64,000 nucleotides of DNA from Candidatus Pelagibacterales bacterium (lineage in GTDB: Bacteria > Pseudomonadota > Alphaproteobacteria > Pelagibacterales > AG-422-B15): NCBI GenBank assembly GCA_028412835.1, contig JAONQW010000001.1, forward strand, positions 11,617 to 75,616, read 5' to 3'. Shown here one piece after another: positions 2,707 to 54,830 of this stretch (the stretch's first letter is position 1; every line of letters starts with the position of its first letter). The position numbers and the translations under genes are program-made. Below the pieces are notes generated by a model, which worked only from the letters and a program-made list of their open reading frames with translations, had not been told where the DNA came from and did not search any database.

Positions 2707-5553
2707 TTAGTTTCTTTCATTTAACAAGGTCTTTAGATATTGACCAGTATAACTTTTCTTTATTTTCGATACTTTTTCTGGTGTTCCTGTTGCAACAATT
2801 TCTCCACCACCATCTCCACCTTCAGGGCCTAGATCAATAACCCAGTCAGCAGTTTTTATGACATCAAGATTGTGTTCAATTACTAGTACAGTATTACCCT
2901 GCGAAACTAATGTTTGTAATACTTCAAGTAATTTTTTGATATCATGCACATGTAGCCCAGTTGTTGGTTCATCTAGTATATATAAAGTCTTTCCCGTCGC
3001 TCTTTTAGATAGTTCTTTTGAGAGTTTAATTCTTTGTGCCTCTCCACCTGAAAGAGTTGTCGCTTGTTGACCAATTTTTATGTAACCAAGCCCAACATTT
3101 TTTAATGTAATCAATTTACTTTTTAGCAAAGGAATTGCATCAAAGAATAAGCAGCCCTCATCAACAGTCATATCTAAAATATCTGAGATATTTTTATCTT
3201 TAAATTTAATTTCTAGTGTTTCCCTATTATAACGCTTACCTTTACATTCATCACAAGTAACATATACATCTGGAAGAAAGTGCATTTCTATCTTAATGAC
3301 ACCGTCACCTTCACATGCTTCACATCTTCCACCCTTAACATTAAATGAAAATCTACCCGGCTTATATCCTCTTGATTTTGATTCTGGAAGGCTAGAAAAC
3401 CAGTCTCTAATATAAGTGAAAGCTCCAGTATATGTTGCTGGATTTGAGCGCGGAGTTCTACCAATTGGTGATTGATCTATATCAATCACTTTATCAAGAT
3501 ATTTAAGTCCAATTATTTCTTTATATTTTGATGGATTATATTTTGATCCATTTAACTCTCTTGCAACAGCTTTATAAAGAGTATTTATAGTTAATGTAGA
3601 CTTTCCACTTCCTGACACACCCGTTATACAAGTTAAAGTACCTAATGGTATTTCTGTTGAAACATTCTTGAGATTATTGCCTGATGCTTCAATAATTTTA
3701 AGATACTTATTATCTAAAGCGGACCTTCGTGTGGATGGAGTAGCTATACTTTGTTTTCGAGACAAATATTGTCCAGTAAGGCTTTTTTTATTTTTCTTTA
3801 CCTCAAGTGGTGTCCCAGTTGCAACAACATGTCCACCATCTAAACCCGCTGCAGGACCAAGATCAATTAAGTAATCTGCATTCATCATAGCCTCTTCGTC
3901 ATGCTCAACAACAATCACTGTATTACCCAAGTCCTTTAGCCTCTTTAAAGTTGCTAACAATCTTGCATTATCTCTTTGATGTAAGCCAATAGAGGGTTCA
4001 TCGAGTACATATAGTACACCAGTTAAACCCGACCCAATTTGGGAAGCAAGTCTTATTCTTTGAGATTCTCCTCCTGAGAGTGTTCCAGAATTTCTTGATA
4101 AAGTTAGGTATTCAAGTCCAACATTATTTAAAAAATTTATTCTTTCTGTAAGCTCCTTTAAAATTCGGTAAGCAATCTCAGACTCTTTTTTCGTTAGTTT
4201 TTTCTCTAATTTCTTAAACCAAATAACTAGTTGTTTAATAGATTTTTTGCAAACGTCCCCAATGTGTTGATCATCAATTTTAACAACTAGAGCCTCTTCT
4301 TTTAATCTATTGCCCTCACATTCTGGGCATTTAACTTCAGATTGATATCTTTCGATATTACCTCGCATCCAATCACTTTCTGTTTCAATATAGCGTCTCT
4401 CTAAGTTTCTGACCACACCTTCAAAACTTTTTTTAGATGTTTGAACTCTATAGCCATCATCGTAAGTAAATTTAATATGTTCATCTTCAGAACCAAATAA
4501 AATTATATTATGAATTTTTTTTGGTAATTTGGACCAAGGTGTATCTAATGAAAACTTAAAATGTTTAGCTAAACTATTGCATATCTGTCTGAAGTATGGA
4601 GAATTTGTTAGAGACCAGGGAGCTATCGCACCATTATTTATAGTCAACTCTTTATTTGGTATAACTAAATTAGGATCAACTGAAAGATCAGTACCTATGC
4701 CGTCACACTCAGGACAAGCCCCATATGGATTATTAAATGAAAAAAGTCTTGGTTCAATCTCATCTATAGTAAAACCAGAAACAGGACATGCAAATTTTGA
4801 AGAAAAAATTTCACGGCTTGGTGATTTTTCATCTATTGAATGATCTTCAATTGCAGCAAGTCCATCAGATAAATTTAATGCCGTCTCTAAGCTATCAGCT
4901 AGCCTATTACCAAGATCTTTATTTAATACTATTCGATCTACAATAATGTCAATTTCATGTTTCTTTTTTTTATCTAAAGTAGGCAGATCATCAAAGTCAT
5001 ATTGGGTTCCATCAATTTTTACTCTTTGAAAACCTTTTCTTTGAAGTTCGGCCAATTCTTTTTTATACTCACCTTTTCTACCTCTAACTATTGGGGCTAG
5101 TATTATAAATTTAGTACCAATTGGTTTTTCTTTAATTCTATCAACCATTTGACTTACAGTTTGACTAGTAATTGGAAGGCCAGTAGCAGGCGAGTAGGGT
5201 ATTCCTATTCTTGCATATAATAGCCTAAGATAGTCATAAATTTCTGTTACAGTTCCAACAGTAGATCGAGGATTTTTTGAGGTTGTTTTTTGTTCAATTG
5301 CAATGGCTGGACTCAAACCTTCAATTAAGTCAACATCAGGTTTCTGCATCATCTCAAGAAATTGCCTTGCATAAGCAGATAAGCTTTCCACATACCTTCT
5401 TTGACCTTCAGCATAGATGGTATCAAAAGCTAATGAAGATTTACCAGATCCAGATAATCCAGTTATAATTGTAATTTTTTCTCGCGGAATTTTAACATTA
5501 ACATTCTTTAAGTTATGTTCACGAGCGCCTTGTACTGAAATATATTTATTCAT
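2707..5553 (-). CDS. uvrA: excinuclease ABC subunit A
   Basis: 948 aa with two ABC modules ([18 protein letters not shown]), two LSGGE signatures and CxxC zinc modules. Confidence 0.97.
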
Positions 5554-49865: not shown

Positions 49866-50486
49866 TTAGGGAGCGATCCATTGCTTATCTATATTAGTTT
49901 TGCTAATCGTAAACTTAGCTCTTCGGTGACCATTTTGGTGCAAATAAAGCCATTCGATAGCTTTTATGTTTATATTTACATGTGTGAAATTCTGATAACC
50001 TGACTCTAGTTCTTCAGGAGAGGGAAGTATATCTTCGTATTGTTCTGGATAGCCAGATGTTGGCGTACTTGACTCAGTTCCAGGGGCATTTTTTACAAGG
50101 TAACATTTTTTGCTAAAATCTCTTATATTTGACCAGATTGCTTTTGTATTAGCATTTTTATGGTTAATTTCTGCAATTCCATTGATTTTTAACTGTATTT
50201 TACTAGCATGATCATAAAGTAAAACTGTTACATTAGATTTATATTTTATCTCATTGATTTTATGAGATCTTATATCTGTATGAAAACCTATAGTTAGTTG
50301 ATCCTTGTCAACATGTCTTAAAACAACAGTTCGAACTGAGGGAAATTCATTGCCAGTTGATGCCACGTAGCATTGATGAAATTCAGAGTTACGATCTTTT
50401 TTACCAATCTTGAGTCGAGACCATATTTCATCATATATTTTGTCAATATCGTTATAATGATCGGGAAGGTTGCTACTTTCTACCAT
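49866..50486 (-). CDS. pyridoxamine 5'-phosphate oxidase-like FMN-binding protein
   Basis: 206 aa with a split-barrel pattern (PSVRTVVLRHVD). Overlaps the upstream SDR gene by 7 nt. Confidence 0.6.
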   Translation of the reverse strand: MVESSNLPDHYNDIDKIYDEIWSRLKIGKKDRNSEFHQCYVASTGNEFPSVRTVVLRHVDKDQLTIGFHTDIRSHKINEIKYKSNVTVLLYDHASKIQLKINGIAEINHKNANTKAIWSNIRDFSKKCYLVKNAPGTESSTPTSGYPEQYEDILPSPEELESGYQNFTHVNINIKAIEWLYLHQNGHRRAKFTISKTNIDKQWIAP

Positions 50487-51196: not shown

Positions 51197-51556
51197 ATGA
51201 ATATTATGACGTATCTTAAAAAAGCTATTTTTTATGCGTACATGGCTTACGTAATATTTATGTATACTAGGCCTGTTTCCATTGACAGATATTTAGAGAA
51301 AACCAGTGAGCTGGATTTAGATAAAATCTTTCATTTTTTAACCTTTTTATTACTTGGAATACTTGCACAAATTACTAATAATAGAACAAACGATAATATT
51401 TATGCTGTTACCCTTGCTTTAATCGTAAGTCTTTTTATTGAATTCACTCATTTTGTGATACCGTATAGAGATTTTGAAGTTTTAGACGGCTTGTTTAACA
51501 TAATTGGATGTGTTGTTGGAATTGCTATTGTTAATTATTATAGAAAAAAAATATGA
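51197..51556 (+). CDS. VanZ-like membrane protein
   Basis: 119 aa with 4 TM. The DKIFHFLTF and EFTHFVIPYR motifs are typical of the VanZ family. Confidence 0.65.
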   Translation: MNIMTYLKKAIFYAYMAYVIFMYTRPVSIDRYLEKTSELDLDKIFHFLTFLLLGILAQITNNRTNDNIYAVTLALIVSLFIEFTHFVIPYRDFEVLDGLFNIIGCVVGIAIVNYYRKKI

Positions 51557-51918
51557 AGAAATTATTAATACGTAATATTTGTCAGCCACCTGATACTAAT
51601 CCCTATGGCACAGGTCATGGCGCATGGATTGCAAAACAAGTTGCTCATGGAGGCATTTATTATTCAATGATGGTTTCTGGTGGCGATGCAGTTTTAGCCA
51701 ATATACAACTTAAATATAAAAGCCCAATGCATGTTGGTAAATTTATTTGTGTTTATGGATCTATTAAAGAAATTAAAGGTTCAAAGATGATCTTTTTACT
51801 AGAAGCTAAAAGGGTTGAGAAAAACCAGAAAGAAATAACAGTTGCTGACGGTACGTTGGAATATGTTGCGGTTAATGAAAAAGGTAAGCCTAGAAAATTT
51901 AAACCAAATCTTAAATAA
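51553..51918 (+). CDS. hotdog-fold acyl-CoA thioesterase
   Basis: 121 aa. The N-terminal PPDTNPYGTGHGAWI resembles the YciA/Acot-type (N..G..HGG) motif. Overlaps VanZ by 4 nt. Confidence 0.7.
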   Translation: MKKLLIRNICQPPDTNPYGTGHGAWIAKQVAHGGIYYSMMVSGGDAVLANIQLKYKSPMHVGKFICVYGSIKEIKGSKMIFLLEAKRVEKNQKEITVADGTLEYVAVNEKGKPRKFKPNLK

Positions 51919-51920
51919 AA

Positions 51921-51950
51921 AATAACCCCCATATTGCTATGAGGGTTATT
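51921..51950. terminator. intrinsic terminator hairpin between convergent units (better on minus strand)
   Basis: AATAACCCCC..GAGGGTTATT forms 8 bp plus a C-A mismatch on the plus strand. On the minus strand it forms 10 bp including one G-U, followed by TTTTATTT. Confidence 0.6.
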
Positions 51951-51959
51951 ATGTAGTTT

Positions 51960-52061
51960 TTAGTTCGGAGCTCCACTCATAAAGTGAAGGTTTCCAATAT
52001 CTACGTGATTTTGGTTACCTTCGATTAATATCGCGGGCTCCATAATACTACTAATAGACAT
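51960..52061 (-). CDS. candidate 33-aa small protein (alternatively a small structured RNA)
   Basis: AAAGGAGGTG lies 6 nt upstream of ATG 52061. The ORF is MSISSIMEPAILIEGNQNHVDIGNLHFMSGAPN, ending at TAA 51960-51962, with a terminator hairpin immediately downstream. GC-enriched relative to other spacers. Confidence 0.4.
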   Translation of the reverse strand: MSISSIMEPAILIEGNQNHVDIGNLHFMSGAPN

Positions 52062-52149
52062 AGACCACCTCCTTTCATAAATATGTTTAATTGATCGTAA
52101 ACAAATATATAATCTGCTAGATTCTAATTTCAATCAAGGAGAATAGACC

Positions 52150-52578
52150 ATGGAATACGAAATTTTTGGCCCAGTATTTAATATGTTTTGCTTAACAACA
52201 GCTGTTTTTTTGCTAGTTACACTATTGCGTTTAAAATCTATATATATTGATAAGGCGAGTCCTGGGGAAGATTATCGTTACCCAACATTTCCTCAAGGCA
52301 ATAAAATATTACAAAATGCCCAAAGAAATTTGATTAATTTATTTGAGTTTCCAATTATTTTTTACGCCACAATAGCTATTATAATTGCGACTAACAATAT
52401 TGATCAGACTTTTGTAGATTTGGCTTGTTATTTTTTCTATTTTAGACTTGCACACTCTATTTATCATATTTTTGGTAATCATTTAATATTAGGTGGCCTT
52501 CCAGTAAGAGCGCCTTTATTTCTAGGAGCGTTCTTAATAAATGCCTATATGATTATTAGACTTTGTGGAATGCTATAA
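52150..52578 (+). CDS. MAPEG-family membrane protein, paralog 1
   Basis: 142 aa with 4 TM. AQRNLINLFEFPIIFY resembles the MAPEG R..N..E motif. AAGGAG lies 8 nt upstream of the ATG. Confidence 0.65.
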   Translation: MEYEIFGPVFNMFCLTTAVFLLVTLLRLKSIYIDKASPGEDYRYPTFPQGNKILQNAQRNLINLFEFPIIFYATIAIIIATNNIDQTFVDLACYFFYFRLAHSIYHIFGNHLILGGLPVRAPLFLGAFLINAYMIIRLCGML

Positions 52579-52993
52579 GTTGACTAACTTACTTATCTAT
52601 CCAATTTTATTTCTTGTAATCGTTACACTGATCGTAGGCTTTATACATACCTATGGATCAGTGTGGCTTATGAACAATGATAAAAAGTGGAAGAAAAACG
52701 GTATTCCATTAGATCCAAAGTCAGGTTCGCCTGAGTGGTTATTATTAATTAAAAATAATTTAATCAATTTATTTGAATTCCCACTTATTTTTTATCTAAT
52801 TTCTCTGATTGCCTACTTTCAAAATTTTAATGATTTATTTTTATTAGTAAATTGTTGGATTTATGTTCTCCTGAGAACTGCTCATAGCTATGTGCATATA
52901 TATATGAAGAATACAAATATAAGAGGCGCTTTATGGCTTTTTAGTCAAGTAGTTGTTAGTTTGATTGTAGTTAGATTTATTATGCTGATCTAA
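52565..52993 (+). CDS. MAPEG-family membrane protein, paralog 2
   Basis: 142 aa and homologous to the upstream gene (NNLINLFEFPLIFY). The start is ambiguous, either GTG 52565 or TTG 52580. Confidence 0.6.
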   Translation: MECYKLTNLLIYPILFLVIVTLIVGFIHTYGSVWLMNNDKKWKKNGIPLDPKSGSPEWLLLIKNNLINLFEFPLIFYLISLIAYFQNFNDLFLLVNCWIYVLLRTAHSYVHIYMKNTNIRGALWLFSQVVVSLIVVRFIMLI

Positions 52994-53439: not shown

Positions 53440-54150
53440 ATGGTCTCTTTTTGGTGTGTTTATATACCTAGGTTTGTTCTAGTTTACTTCTTGTCTGCAG
53501 TTGCAATAGCAGCGTACTTCTATCCAGGTGGTAATCATTTAGATGCATCTCAACAAGGCTATGATTTTACTATTAATTTTTTAAGTGAACTTGGTTTCTA
53601 TAATACACTATCTGGTGAAACTAATTTTTTATCAGCATTCTTTTTCAATTCAGCAATGTTCATGCATATACTTGTTGGAGTTGGATTTTTAATGATGCCC
53701 AAGCTTTTTAATGATAATATTTATTCTTATGTATCTGCTTGGCTTGGAGCAATTACAATTTCAATTTCATGTGTTTTTTTTGCAGGAGTAGGGTTAACAC
53801 CTGGTGATTTATATTTTCCAGCACATATTTTTGCTGTTCAAAATGCATTCAATTTAGTTTTTTTTGCCTATCTTTTTATTTGCTTAGCTTTCTTCTTTAG
53901 CTCATCTAGCAATAAATACACAATTGGTTCTATAATGATGTTTGTTATAACTATTAGTTATGCAATATTTATATCTGATCAACAGGTGATAGATCCAGTT
54001 AATGAAAAAGAGTTATTTCAGGAAGTTGTTACTACTGAAGTACTAAGAATAAATGCTATTTTGCAAAAACTTGTAACTATATTTATGAATATTTCACTAC
54101 TTATGTTCAGCTATGGCTTTGCTGATAGAATAAAAAGAAAAGGTTTTTAA
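53440..54150 (+). CDS. 6-TM membrane protein, tandem paralog A (possibly DUF998-like)
   Basis: 236 aa with YFYPGGN, NFLSELG and NFLSAFFFNSAMF motifs. Paralogous to the next gene. Confidence 0.6.
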   Translation: MVSFWCVYIPRFVLVYFLSAVAIAAYFYPGGNHLDASQQGYDFTINFLSELGFYNTLSGETNFLSAFFFNSAMFMHILVGVGFLMMPKLFNDNIYSYVSAWLGAITISISCVFFAGVGLTPGDLYFPAHIFAVQNAFNLVFFAYLFICLAFFFSSSSNKYTIGSIMMFVITISYAIFISDQQVIDPVNEKELFQEVVTTEVLRINAILQKLVTIFMNISLLMFSYGFADRIKRKGF

Positions 54151-54830
54151 TGTATAATTTTTTTACAGTTACTATTTTAAGGTTTGTTTCAATATATTTT
54201 GTATTATCAGTATTAATTGCCTCATATTTCTATCCAGGCGGAAACATCCATGATCCTTTGCAGGTTGGCTATTCATTTACACATAATTTTTTAAGTGATT
54301 TAGGTGGTTATACTTCACGATCTGGAGAAGTTAACTTTCTTTCCGCATTTTTCTTCAATTTTTCGATGTTTATCTTTTCTGCTGTTGGAATTGGGTTTTT
54401 ATTTGTCCCTGCACTTTTTAAAGACAATGCCACAAATTATTATTTAGCCTGGTTGGGTTCAATATTCTTTTTCGTTGGTACAATTTACTTTGCGGCTGTA
54501 GGCTTAACACCTCATGATTTATATTTAAGTGAACATATATATTTTGCTATAAATGCCTTTAGAATTTTAATTCCTGCTGGATTGTTTTATGTAATAGTTT
54601 TTTTTAGAAGCAATATCCCAAATTTTTATGCTTATTTAACATTAGTTTTTTTCATATTCACTACCGGTTATGTTGTGTACCAACTAACAAATGGTAGTCC
54701 TCGTGACAGTATTGAGGCGCTAATAGAGCAGGTATCGATACAAAAGTTAATAGCATTTGTAAGTACAATAAATATATTTTTGTTGAGCTTTGGTTTTAAA
54801 TCAAGAATTAAAGAACTCAATATTTCTTAA
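54150..54830 (+). CDS. 6-TM membrane protein, tandem paralog B (possibly DUF998-like)
   Basis: 226 aa with YFYPGGN, NFLSDLGG and NFLSAFFFNFSMF motifs. Its start overlaps the paralog A stop (TAATG). Confidence 0.6.
   Translation: MYNFFTVTILRFVSIYFVLSVLIASYFYPGGNIHDPLQVGYSFTHNFLSDLGGYTSRSGEVNFLSAFFFNFSMFIFSAVGIGFLFVPALFKDNATNYYLAWLGSIFFFVGTIYFAAVGLTPHDLYLSEHIYFAINAFRILIPAGLFYVIVFFRSNIPNFYAYLTLVFFIFTTGYVVYQLTNGSPRDSIEALIEQVSIQKLIAFVSTINIFLLSFGFKSRIKELNIS

Follow-up and report, generated by a model that had tools for sequence, protein, structure and literature searches.

The 64,000-nucleotide (nt) stretch of the Candidatus Pelagibacterales contig JAONQW010000001.1 analysed here (the window) raises the question of whether a 231-nt spacer between two of its genes holds a small gene or a structured RNA. 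The spacer lies between the gene of a 4HBT thioesterase (51553-51918, plus strand) and the first of two MAPEG genes (52150-52578, plus strand), and it stands out because the adjoining genes are packed tightly. The element in question occupies the minus strand of 51911-52133, from a promoter-like site through a terminator, and is thus convergent with the thioesterase gene and divergent from the MAPEG gene. A preliminary description of the spacer had noticed a patch richer in guanine and cytosine (GC) than its surroundings, which was borne out by a GC content of 0.38 in 51950-52049 versus approximately 0.24-0.33 in most adjacent 100-nt bins. It had offered the small gene and the structured RNA as alternatives. 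The comparisons of related sequences described below indicate that the element is a real, conserved unit and that it is both a small open reading frame (ORF) and a structured RNA.

The promoter scan predicted a -35-like hexamer TTGAAA (52128-52133) and a -10-like hexamer TATATT (52104-52109) on the minus strand, with 10 of 12 matches and an 18-nt spacer. TTGAAA is kept in most lineages; the type represented by L047 (the L numbers denote the loci compared) has TAGAAA, with TTGATA 4 nt upstream. The -10 core ATTATATA was invariant in alignments A1 and A2 as well as in the alignment of 33 sequences. The Shine-Dalgarno (SD) sequence AAAGGAGGTG is located at 52075-52066, and the ATG at 52061 opens 33 codons (32 in some lineages) that end with TAA at 51962-51960. 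This small ORF (51960-52061, minus strand) translates as MSISSIMEPAILIEGNQNHVDIGNLHFMSGAPN. After 9 nt, it is followed by an intrinsic terminator (51911-51950, minus strand), in which the terminator scan found a stem of 13 pairs at 51950-51921, four of them G-C and one G-U, and then the U-rich tract TTTTATTTAA. Compensatory changes (A-U to G-C and U-A to C-G) were seen in the terminator stem. The distance from the predicted start to the U-tract is approximately 185 nt, and the promoter-like site and the terminator are both conserved. The preliminary description had placed the SD, ATG, 33 codons, stop, and hairpin correctly. Its spacing of 6 nt between SD and ATG holds only when counted from the AGGAGG core, the distance from AAAGGAGGTG being 4 nt (GTCT), and the stem has 13 bp instead of the 10 bp given there. 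Two other candidate starts were rejected, namely a 57-codon TTG-start ORF of the ORF list, whose upstream part is not conserved and overlaps the promoter, and an upstream AUG (52078-52076), which is missing in several lineages.

Both ends of the element appear to be common to its neighbours. The terminator lies 3 nt beyond the stop codon of the thioesterase gene. It is probably bidirectional, serving the element as well as the convergent thioesterase gene. On the plus strand, the complement of the -10-like hexamer is TATAAT, which the MAPEG gene could use; a back-to-back promoter may thus be common to both genes and regulate them jointly. The block at 52120-52141 belongs to both divergent genes: its minus strand, CTCCTTGATTGAAATTAGAATC, carries the -35-like hexamer, and its plus strand forms the 5' leader of the MAPEG gene, including the SD AAGGAG. 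This block is nearly invariant across all lineages, while the identity of the MAPEG protein drops to 47-60%.

The element was recovered from 56 related Pelagibacteraceae loci representing approximately nine sequence types. It was always present in a single copy and always between the convergent 4HBT thioesterase and the divergent MAPEG gene. The loci were collected by peptide searches, contig look-ups, and a GTDB genome scan based on the MAPEG protein, as well as by a metagenome scan anchored on the conserved 3' block described below and by means of distant thioesterase homologues. The hosts found in the GTDB scan were Pelagibacteraceae metagenome-assembled genomes and one single-cell genome. 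An identical thioesterase protein occurs in 801 blocks of the assembly collection; a 33-amino-acid gene had been called in the spacer in nine of the ten loci shown for it. In the most distant types (L047/L053 and L051) the spacer has no called gene, yet the element is present. The locus L057, in which a thioesterase homologue of 47% identity stands in another context, lacks the element, and the viral contigs scanned with an anchored pattern gave no match. The search of 1.84 billion representatives with the peptide returned only family members and two marginal matches (proteins of more than 1200 amino acids, E about 5e-4 to 8e-4), which were taken as chance.

The pattern of conservation was examined by comparing the window with L011, L018/L019, and L030. 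In these comparisons the nucleotide identity of the flanking genes is only 54-72%, and the proportion of synonymous differences (pS) is 0.55-0.86, which is near saturation. Meanwhile, the conserved blocks of the element are 95-96% identical overall: 39-40 of 41 positions in the 5' block, which runs from GAAAGG through codon 9, and 47-49 of 51 in the 3' block, which runs from codon 21 through ACUACA past the stop. The near-invariant 3' block UAGAUAUUGGAAACCUUCACUUUAUGAGUGGAGCUCCGAACUAAAAACUACA (51952-52002, minus strand), encoding DIGNLHFMSGAPN, varied in only 7 of its 51 columns over 17 sequences. Between the two blocks lies a hypervariable segment (52003-52035, minus strand; codons 9-20) with 29 of 33 columns variable, in which the window and L030 match at 10 of 33 positions, the random level. 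Recent transfer or gene conversion was rejected as the source of the conservation because the conserved blocks flank this saturated middle.

The synonymous sites told the same blocks apart from ordinary coding sequence. The pS in the conserved ORF blocks was 0-0.22 (0.35 for L051) versus 0.42-0.86 in the neighbouring genes in the same comparisons, indicating that the synonymous sites of the blocks are approximately 3-4 times more conserved than those of the neighbours. The non-coding flanks, namely the leader and the ACUACA beyond the stop, are conserved as much as the ends of the ORF. As such a low pS is not explicable by selection at the protein level alone, we conclude that the constraint acts on the nucleotide sequence, i.e., on the RNA.

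Folding of the minus strand gave a z-score of -4.6 (-3.8 for the plus strand), and none of the 200 shuffled sequences folded equally well. The minimum free energy (MFE) folds contain a rod, an interrupted 34-bp hairpin at 51953-52051 (minus strand) that encloses codons 4-33 and the stop; it begins 10 nt downstream of the A of the AUG and ends 7 nt beyond the stop. Its helices are GUAGU/ACUAC at the base, AUGGAGCCCGC/GUGGAGCUCCG, and GAAGGU..CCAA/UUGG..ACCUUC. The near-invariant block forms the 3' arm of the rod, while the hypervariable segment forms its 5' arm and apical loop. The rod together with the terminator has -50.4 kcal/mol versus -36.4 kcal/mol for the alternative with local hairpins, and the rod is the MFE structure in eight of the nine sequence types. 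In the most distant types, its core is stronger than that of the window, having -45 kcal/mol and an uninterrupted helix of 16 bp. The contribution of the variable arm was assessed by shuffling the 5' arm alone and expressing the stability of the fold as a z-score. The values obtained were -4.1 for the window, -4.9 for L012, -4.4 for L027, -4.2 for L011, -4.1 for L019, -2.2 for L024, and -1.3 for L030.

Owing to the invariant 3' arm of the first 17 sequences, their MAFFT alignment showed no double-sided changes of pairs. A covariance model was built, and 22 distinct sequences, including those of the distant types, were aligned to it. In this model-fitted alignment 91.8% of the rod cells were paired versus 37-43% when the partners were slid. 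Seven pairs were changed on both sides, a count reached by 5 of 500 shuffles, and 18 cells were changed on both sides, which was reached by none of the 500. Among the compensatory changes, G-C became A-U at the rod base, and A-U became G-C opposite a synonymous change of CUU to CUC. It should be noted that these covariation counts are biased in favour of the structure, both because the alignment had been fitted to it and because related sequences were used; this bias does not affect the slid controls or the 5'-arm shuffles. In the rod cells, 89 G-U pairs stand against 12 A-C combinations on the minus strand, and the pairing drops from 91.8% to approximately 81% when the same cells are read as plus-strand RNA. 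As the G-U cells outnumber the A-C ones, the minus strand is the RNA strand.

On these results, the first two readings of the preliminary description hold together. All lineages retain the parts expected of a minigene, from the promoter-like site, SD, and ATG to the frame, stop position, and terminator. The conservation of the nucleotide sequence, the rod with its compensatory changes, and the G-U asymmetry support a structured RNA more strongly than was visible to the preliminary description, and the nested helices named there were recovered by folding. The comparison with relatives that had been suggested found the reading frame open in all variants and the rod as the MFE structure in eight of the nine sequence types. 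What did not hold is the choice between the two readings, since the ORF is itself enclosed by the structure.

The rod is not the only fold that the RNA can adopt. The RNAalifold consensus contains two local hairpins, A (52035-52069, minus strand; -7.3 kcal/mol), which encloses the 3' part of the SD together with the AUG, and B (51965-51997, minus strand), which is formed in the invariant block. In hairpin A, 99.5% of the cells are paired, the sequence is almost invariant without covariation, and GAAAGGA is left free. As both hairpins are almost invariant, covariation neither supports nor refutes either of them. Their combined stability falls 14 kcal/mol short of that of the rod, while in the folds of successive prefixes hairpin A is the first to form. 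In addition, an internal hexamer ACCUUC (51986-51991, minus strand) resembles an anti-SD sequence and can pair with the GGAGGU of the element. It pairs with the SD in the prefix folds of 100-118 nt and in the MFE structure of L030, and in L047 and L051 it reads ACCUCC, a perfect anti-SD. Hairpins A and B and the pairing of the SD with ACCUUC are possible alternative states according to these folding models. A third fold, in which the leader UAUUUAUGAA pairs with CUUUAUGAGUG, was dropped because the leader varies without compensation.

Two further details of the structure were observed. The variant at L030:544-715, which is represented by a single contig, has a Cys-rich middle, a change of codon 7 from ATG to AAG, and a weak rod; its fold could be a functional alternative state or could belong to a decaying copy. 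The invariant 3' arm holds the self-complementary octamer GGAGCUCC (51967-51974, minus strand), which could pair intramolecularly with the 5' GGAGC, as in the rod, or could mediate dimerisation.

The reading frame is kept as well. The ORF is open in every variant of the nine or so types, and the distance from ATG to the stop is 99 or 96 nt, the length changing only by whole codons. Within the saturated middle, none of the nine types has a stop in frame 0, while stops occur in frame +1 in seven and in frame +2 in six of them. The ends of the peptide are conserved as MSxxSI (N-terminal) and GNLHFxSGAP (C-terminal), and residue 28 varies only among M, I, V, and L. Our reading of this variation is that the frame, and hence the act of translation, is under selection, and the peptide termini may be under selection too. 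Meanwhile, the middle of the peptide changes radically between the types (EGNQNHV, GCCPCCL, and RGYPVYN in the variable codons), yet the complementarity to the 3' arm is kept, which we read as a sign that pairing with this arm is the only demand on the sequence of the middle. The ORF was called by gene callers in many metagenome assemblies and missed in several lineages. The preliminary description did not recognise the peptide, and the peptide matched no family of Pfam or NCBIfam either; a match to 3HCDH_N with E=0.079 was ignored.

The extended SD region GAAAGGAGGUGGUCUA (GAAAGGAGGTGGTCTA; 52061-52076, minus strand) was compared with the 3' tail of 16S rRNA. For this, we assumed the majority bacterial tail GAUCACCUCCUUU(CU) with its helix-45 flank (CUGGAUCACCUCCUUUCU), which may not be the tail of the host; GAUCACCUCCUUU is present in 14,088 of 20,495 genomes, and B. 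subtilis has GAUCACCUCCUUUCU (PMC6107228). With this tail, GAAAGGAGGTGGTCTA forms 16 contiguous pairs that end on the A of the AUG, two of them G-U (one in the L027-type), a longer stretch than the preliminary description had given, and the perfect Watson-Crick run within them is 11 nt long (14 nt in the L027-type). The calculated duplex energy was -27.5 kcal/mol for the element, -10.1 kcal/mol for the MAPEG SD, and -33.0 kcal/mol for the region of the rre type discussed below. The SD had already appeared conspicuous in the preliminary description, and the window as a whole agrees with this: the 9-mer AAGGAGGTG occurs once in 64 kb, and the complementarity to the 16S tail upstream of the 66 ORFs of at least 100 codons reaches 6 contiguous nt at most and stays below 4 nt in 38 of them. 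The SD region and the ATG are invariant except for a single G/A polymorphism at 52065, at which the pairing with the tail is kept as G-U or A-U.

The closest described counterparts are the rre small mRNAs. Their complementarity region comprises 17 nt to the 16S 3' end, made up of three 5' nt, AGGAGG, seven nt, and the first base of GTG (Hahn et al. 2016, PMC5711450). The rreB RNA of Bradyrhizobiaceae is an mRNA of 165 nt that has a promoter and a terminator of its own and carries a small ORF (sORF) of 14 amino acids, while the sORF of rreR of Rhodobacterales has 18; in rreB, all but the five 5'-most nt of the region are predicted to lie in a hairpin together with the start codon (PMC5711450). 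The rreB RNA binds 30S subunits strongly, is weakly translated, depends on its start codon for stability, and is functionally orphan, and rre analogues have been found in four alpha-proteobacterial orders (PMC5711450). Among the papers searched, we found no later ones on rre function.

The element resembles these RNAs in its alpha-proteobacterial host, in being a monocistronic RNA of about 165-190 nt with its own promoter and terminator (both predicted for the element), and in its predicted 16S complementarity, which extends from GAAAGGAGG to the first base of the start codon. In both, the sORF is conserved in the clade, encodes a peptide without a known family, and is functionally orphan. The 3' part of the complementarity region and the start codon could lie in a hairpin that leaves the 5' nt free in the element as well; this hairpin A would compete with the much more stable rod. 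The differences are also clear. The element has 16 pairs with one or two G-U (11-14 nt perfect) instead of 16-17 perfect pairs, a distance from SD to start that is one nt shorter, and an ATG start instead of GTG, as reported for Azospirillum. Its sORF of 32-33 codons is about twice as long as those of rre RNAs (14-18) and is buried in a long rod with a hypervariable 5' arm, and the host order, Pelagibacterales, is outside those reported for rre.

A search of the 64-kb window against Rfam gave no match at the gathering thresholds. At permissive thresholds, the top family for the window and five other variants was RF01867 (CC2171), which scored 24.7 bits for the window and 23.9-33.9 bits for the others, with E from 2e-4 to 0.07 and a gathering score of 75. 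The alignment runs end to end, over model positions 1-159, with low posterior probabilities in the middle. The other permissive matches (STnc240, Phe_leader, rimP, and others) were driven by the terminator and were dismissed. The element and CC2171 have in common GAAAGGAGGUG.UC..UGUCU and a long-range helix whose base lies directly behind the start codon on one side and directly ahead of the terminator on the other; the inner hairpin and the terminator were matched as well, while the GC content is very unlike. CC2171 is annotated as 'Caulobacter sRNA CC2171' and is expressed in Caulobacter and Methylorubrum (bioRxiv 10.1101/2022.01.24.477521). Its consensus starts GAAAGGAGGUGAUCCAGUG, opening with the exact 17-nt rre region GAAAGGAGGUGAUCCAG, which is followed by UG; when read from this GUG, it contains approximately 22 in-frame codons and then UAA. 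From this consensus, we infer that CC2171 is probably the rre small mRNA of Caulobacter and Rhizobiales and not a non-coding small RNA (sRNA), and we found no paper linking CC2171 with rre. As the Rfam score stays below the gathering threshold and a complementarity of at least 16 nt is reached only conditionally, we regard the element as an rre-like variant and not as a proven member. Kinship with the small mRNAs of the rre/CC2171 type is absent from the readings of the preliminary description.

The explanation that we hold to be the likeliest, with considerable room left for doubt, is that the element works like the rre small mRNAs, i.e., that it docks on 30S subunits by pairing with the whole 16S tail and that its translation is gated by its own structure. 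According to this proposal, a sigma-70-like promoter standing back to back with the MAPEG promoter would start a monocistronic minus-strand mRNA of approximately 180-190 nt, and the terminator would end it. The leader would expose GAAAGGAGGUG(G/A)UCUA, which could base-pair along the full length of the single-stranded 16S rRNA tail, as far as the first base of the AUG, and owing to this whole-tail pairing the RNA should dock very tightly on 30S subunits. The ORF of 32-33 codons would be almost wholly buried in the rod, and since initiation and elongation would have to melt the rod, weak or conditional translation is to be expected. The local hairpin over the AUG and the internal anti-SD ACCUYC could provide further off-states. 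The ORF would nevertheless be translated into an acidic, non-membrane peptide with conserved termini, the middle of which would be free to change as long as the RNA arm still pairs. The docking, the weak translation, and the control at the ribosome are inferred by analogy with rreB.

Several points weigh against this explanation. The element is known from its sequence alone, the transcript, the ribosome binding, and the peptide all being predictions, and its pairing with 16S rRNA was computed with the assumed tail instead of that of the host. The rre RNAs are defined by at least 16 nt of perfect complementarity, and the element has 11 (14 in the L027-type); its ORF is twice as long as the known rre sORFs and starts with ATG, and the CC2171 scores of 24-34 bits are far from the gathering score of 75. 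The covariation was counted in a structure-fitted alignment of related sequences, and the rod of L030 is weak (z -1.3). Finally, the ratio of nonsynonymous to synonymous differences (pN/pS) is 0.35-0.9 in the ORF versus 0.02-0.6 in the neighbours, and one third of the peptide shows no constraint; the peptide itself may therefore be unimportant.

The best of the competing explanations, to which we give a minor share of the probability, is that the element is a non-coding, trans-acting sRNA. In such an RNA, the invariant 3' arm or the apical loop would be the seed for target mRNAs and the variable 5' arm its cover, while the SD, ATG, and ORF would be incidental or would recruit ribosomes only for the sake of stability. 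The constraint at the nucleotide level, including the synonymous sites, fits this well, as does the asymmetry of the arms, the 3' one being invariant and the 5' one free, as a seed and its cover would be. The high pN/pS of the ORF, the unconstrained middle of the peptide, and its place outside the known protein families point in the same direction. Against it, however, the 16-nt docking region and the ATG are invariant and ideally spaced, the frame is open in all variants in spite of the saturated middle, with length changes in multiples of three, no target has been identified, and the nearest precedent, rreB, is translated, though weakly (PMC5711450). The dual-function sRNAs (SgrS/SgrT, SR1/SR1P, and RNAIII/hld; PMC12612679) likewise combine a short transcript and a conserved small ORF with a strong constraint on the RNA. 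The ORF of these RNAs usually lies apart from the regulatory domain; in the element, for which no target was identified, the two coincide.

It is improbable that the element is an ordinary small-protein gene in which the peptide alone is functional, the structure of the RNA and the conservation of its nucleotides being by-products. The SD, ATG, ORF, and terminator are all conserved, gene callers predict the ORF, and the terminal motifs of the peptide and the conservative M/I/V/L exchanges at residue 28 are what such a gene would show. Selection on the peptide, however, leaves out that the pS of the conserved blocks is 3-4 times below that of the neighbours, that the radically changed variable codons remain complementary to the 3' arm, and that the non-coding flanks are as conserved as the ends of the ORF.

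The preliminary description had also considered a cis-acting leader of the MAPEG gene on the plus strand, in which CUCCUU (52069-52074) would mask the MAPEG SD. We regard this as very improbable. The two hexamers are present (CTCCTT at 52069-52074 and AAGGAG at 52136-52141) and complementary, the plus strand folds well (z -3.8), and the MAPEG leader is conserved. The signal of structure, however, lies on the minus strand, as the excess of G-U over A-C cells and the loss of pairing in the plus-strand reading indicate, and the plus-strand MFE structure leaves the two hexamers unpaired with each other. In addition, no plus-strand promoter upstream of 52069 in the spacer passed the scan, and the terminator of the thioesterase gene separates that gene from the patch. 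On the sequence evidence, CUCCUU is simply the complement of the SD of the element itself.

A type I toxin mRNA, i.e., a structured mRNA that is kept silent and encodes a toxic small peptide, is hardly to be expected here. As in hok and AapA1, a strong SD precedes a small ORF enclosed in a long-range 5'-3' structure, and alternative folds can hide the ribosome binding site. The peptides of the element, however, are acidic or neutral (net charge -3 to +1; grand average of hydropathy -0.14 to 0.5), and their top 15-residue hydropathy of at most 1.2 speaks against a transmembrane segment. The spacer shows no evident gene for an antisense or overlapping sRNA that could provide an antitoxin, as no plus-strand promoter/terminator unit passed the scan there; a trans-encoded antitoxin RNA is conceivable. 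In addition, the element is present in a single copy in a fixed syntenic position.

The peptide middles are AILIEGNQNHV in the window, MSLVGFPNHL in L011, TTFEGLPNHL in L019, TYCVGCCPCCL in L030, CSIRRGYPVYNRY in L047, and CSSSEIPCDCRC in L051. A precursor of a ribosomally synthesized and post-translationally modified peptide, with a conserved leader and follower around a hypervariable core of approximately 12 residues that is Cys-rich in L030 and L051, would have such an outline, but we give it very little credit, since there is no maturase-type gene among the neighbours and the variation of the core tracks the complementarity to the follower-coding arm, which is not predicted by a model based on the peptide only.

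If the element is indeed of the rre type, the class reaches a fifth alpha-proteobacterial order, which would argue that it is ancient and important, and the longer ORF, the ATG start, and the rod offer a natural variant for the dissection of ribosome-binding small mRNAs. A more speculative step, which we consider possible rather than likely, is that the RNA itself is the selected product: a ribosome-tethered device that would dock on free 30S subunits by whole-tail pairing, with the ORF in the rod as a translation-dependent switch. With the same reserve, this switch might report or tune the availability of ribosomes, for example, in the cold or during slow growth, or might gate read-through antisense to the thioesterase operon. 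Such a device would be a riboregulator of an undescribed kind for SAR11 and would suggest a function for the orphan rre/CC2171 RNAs. SAR11 is among the most abundant bacterial lineages of the ocean and has streamlined genomes in which non-coding DNA is scarce and regulators are few. When a spacer remains approximately 95% identical while the adjoining genes drift to 55-70%, this points to something that the cell cannot afford to change. The element also illustrates that the question of whether a small gene is 'coding or structured' can be wrongly put.

The genes around the element are the same in the loci examined, apart from the distant lineage described last, and comprise EamA, PNPOx-like, SDR, VanZ, 4HBT, two MAPEG, Mpo1-like, two DUF998-like, and amidase genes. 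Overlaps were seen between VanZ and 4HBT (4 nt, ATGA, 51553-51556) and between SDR and PNPOx-like (7 nt, 50480-50486). The plus-strand 5' leader of the first MAPEG gene with its SD is GATTCTAATTTCAATCAAGGAG (52120-52141), and this gene is among only three long ORFs of the window that have a 6-nt SD. The tandem MAPEG paralogues occupy 52150-52993, the second overlapping the first by 14 nt with a GTG start at 52565; the callers differ on this start, giving 142 or 107 amino acids depending on the assembly. Further downstream, at 53440-54830, two tandem paralogous membrane proteins of 236 and 226 amino acids abut without a spacer. One homologue is annotated as DUF998 in L018, while in L005 only one of the two DUF998-like genes was called and an uncalled gap stands at the place of the other.

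Two loci deviate from this arrangement. On a 1.37-Mb Pelagibacteraceae contig (L046:2501-2862) the thioesterase was called as two ORFs of 77 and 43 amino acids, representing either a frameshifted pseudogene or a polishing error, and the adjoining element is intact. In the distant lineage L048, the usual neighbours are replaced, and the VanZ-4HBT-element-MAPEG block is flanked by the sugar-modification genes DegT, FdtA, and a glycosyltransferase (600-2129, 3882-4592), so that the block borders a variable region of cell-surface genes.

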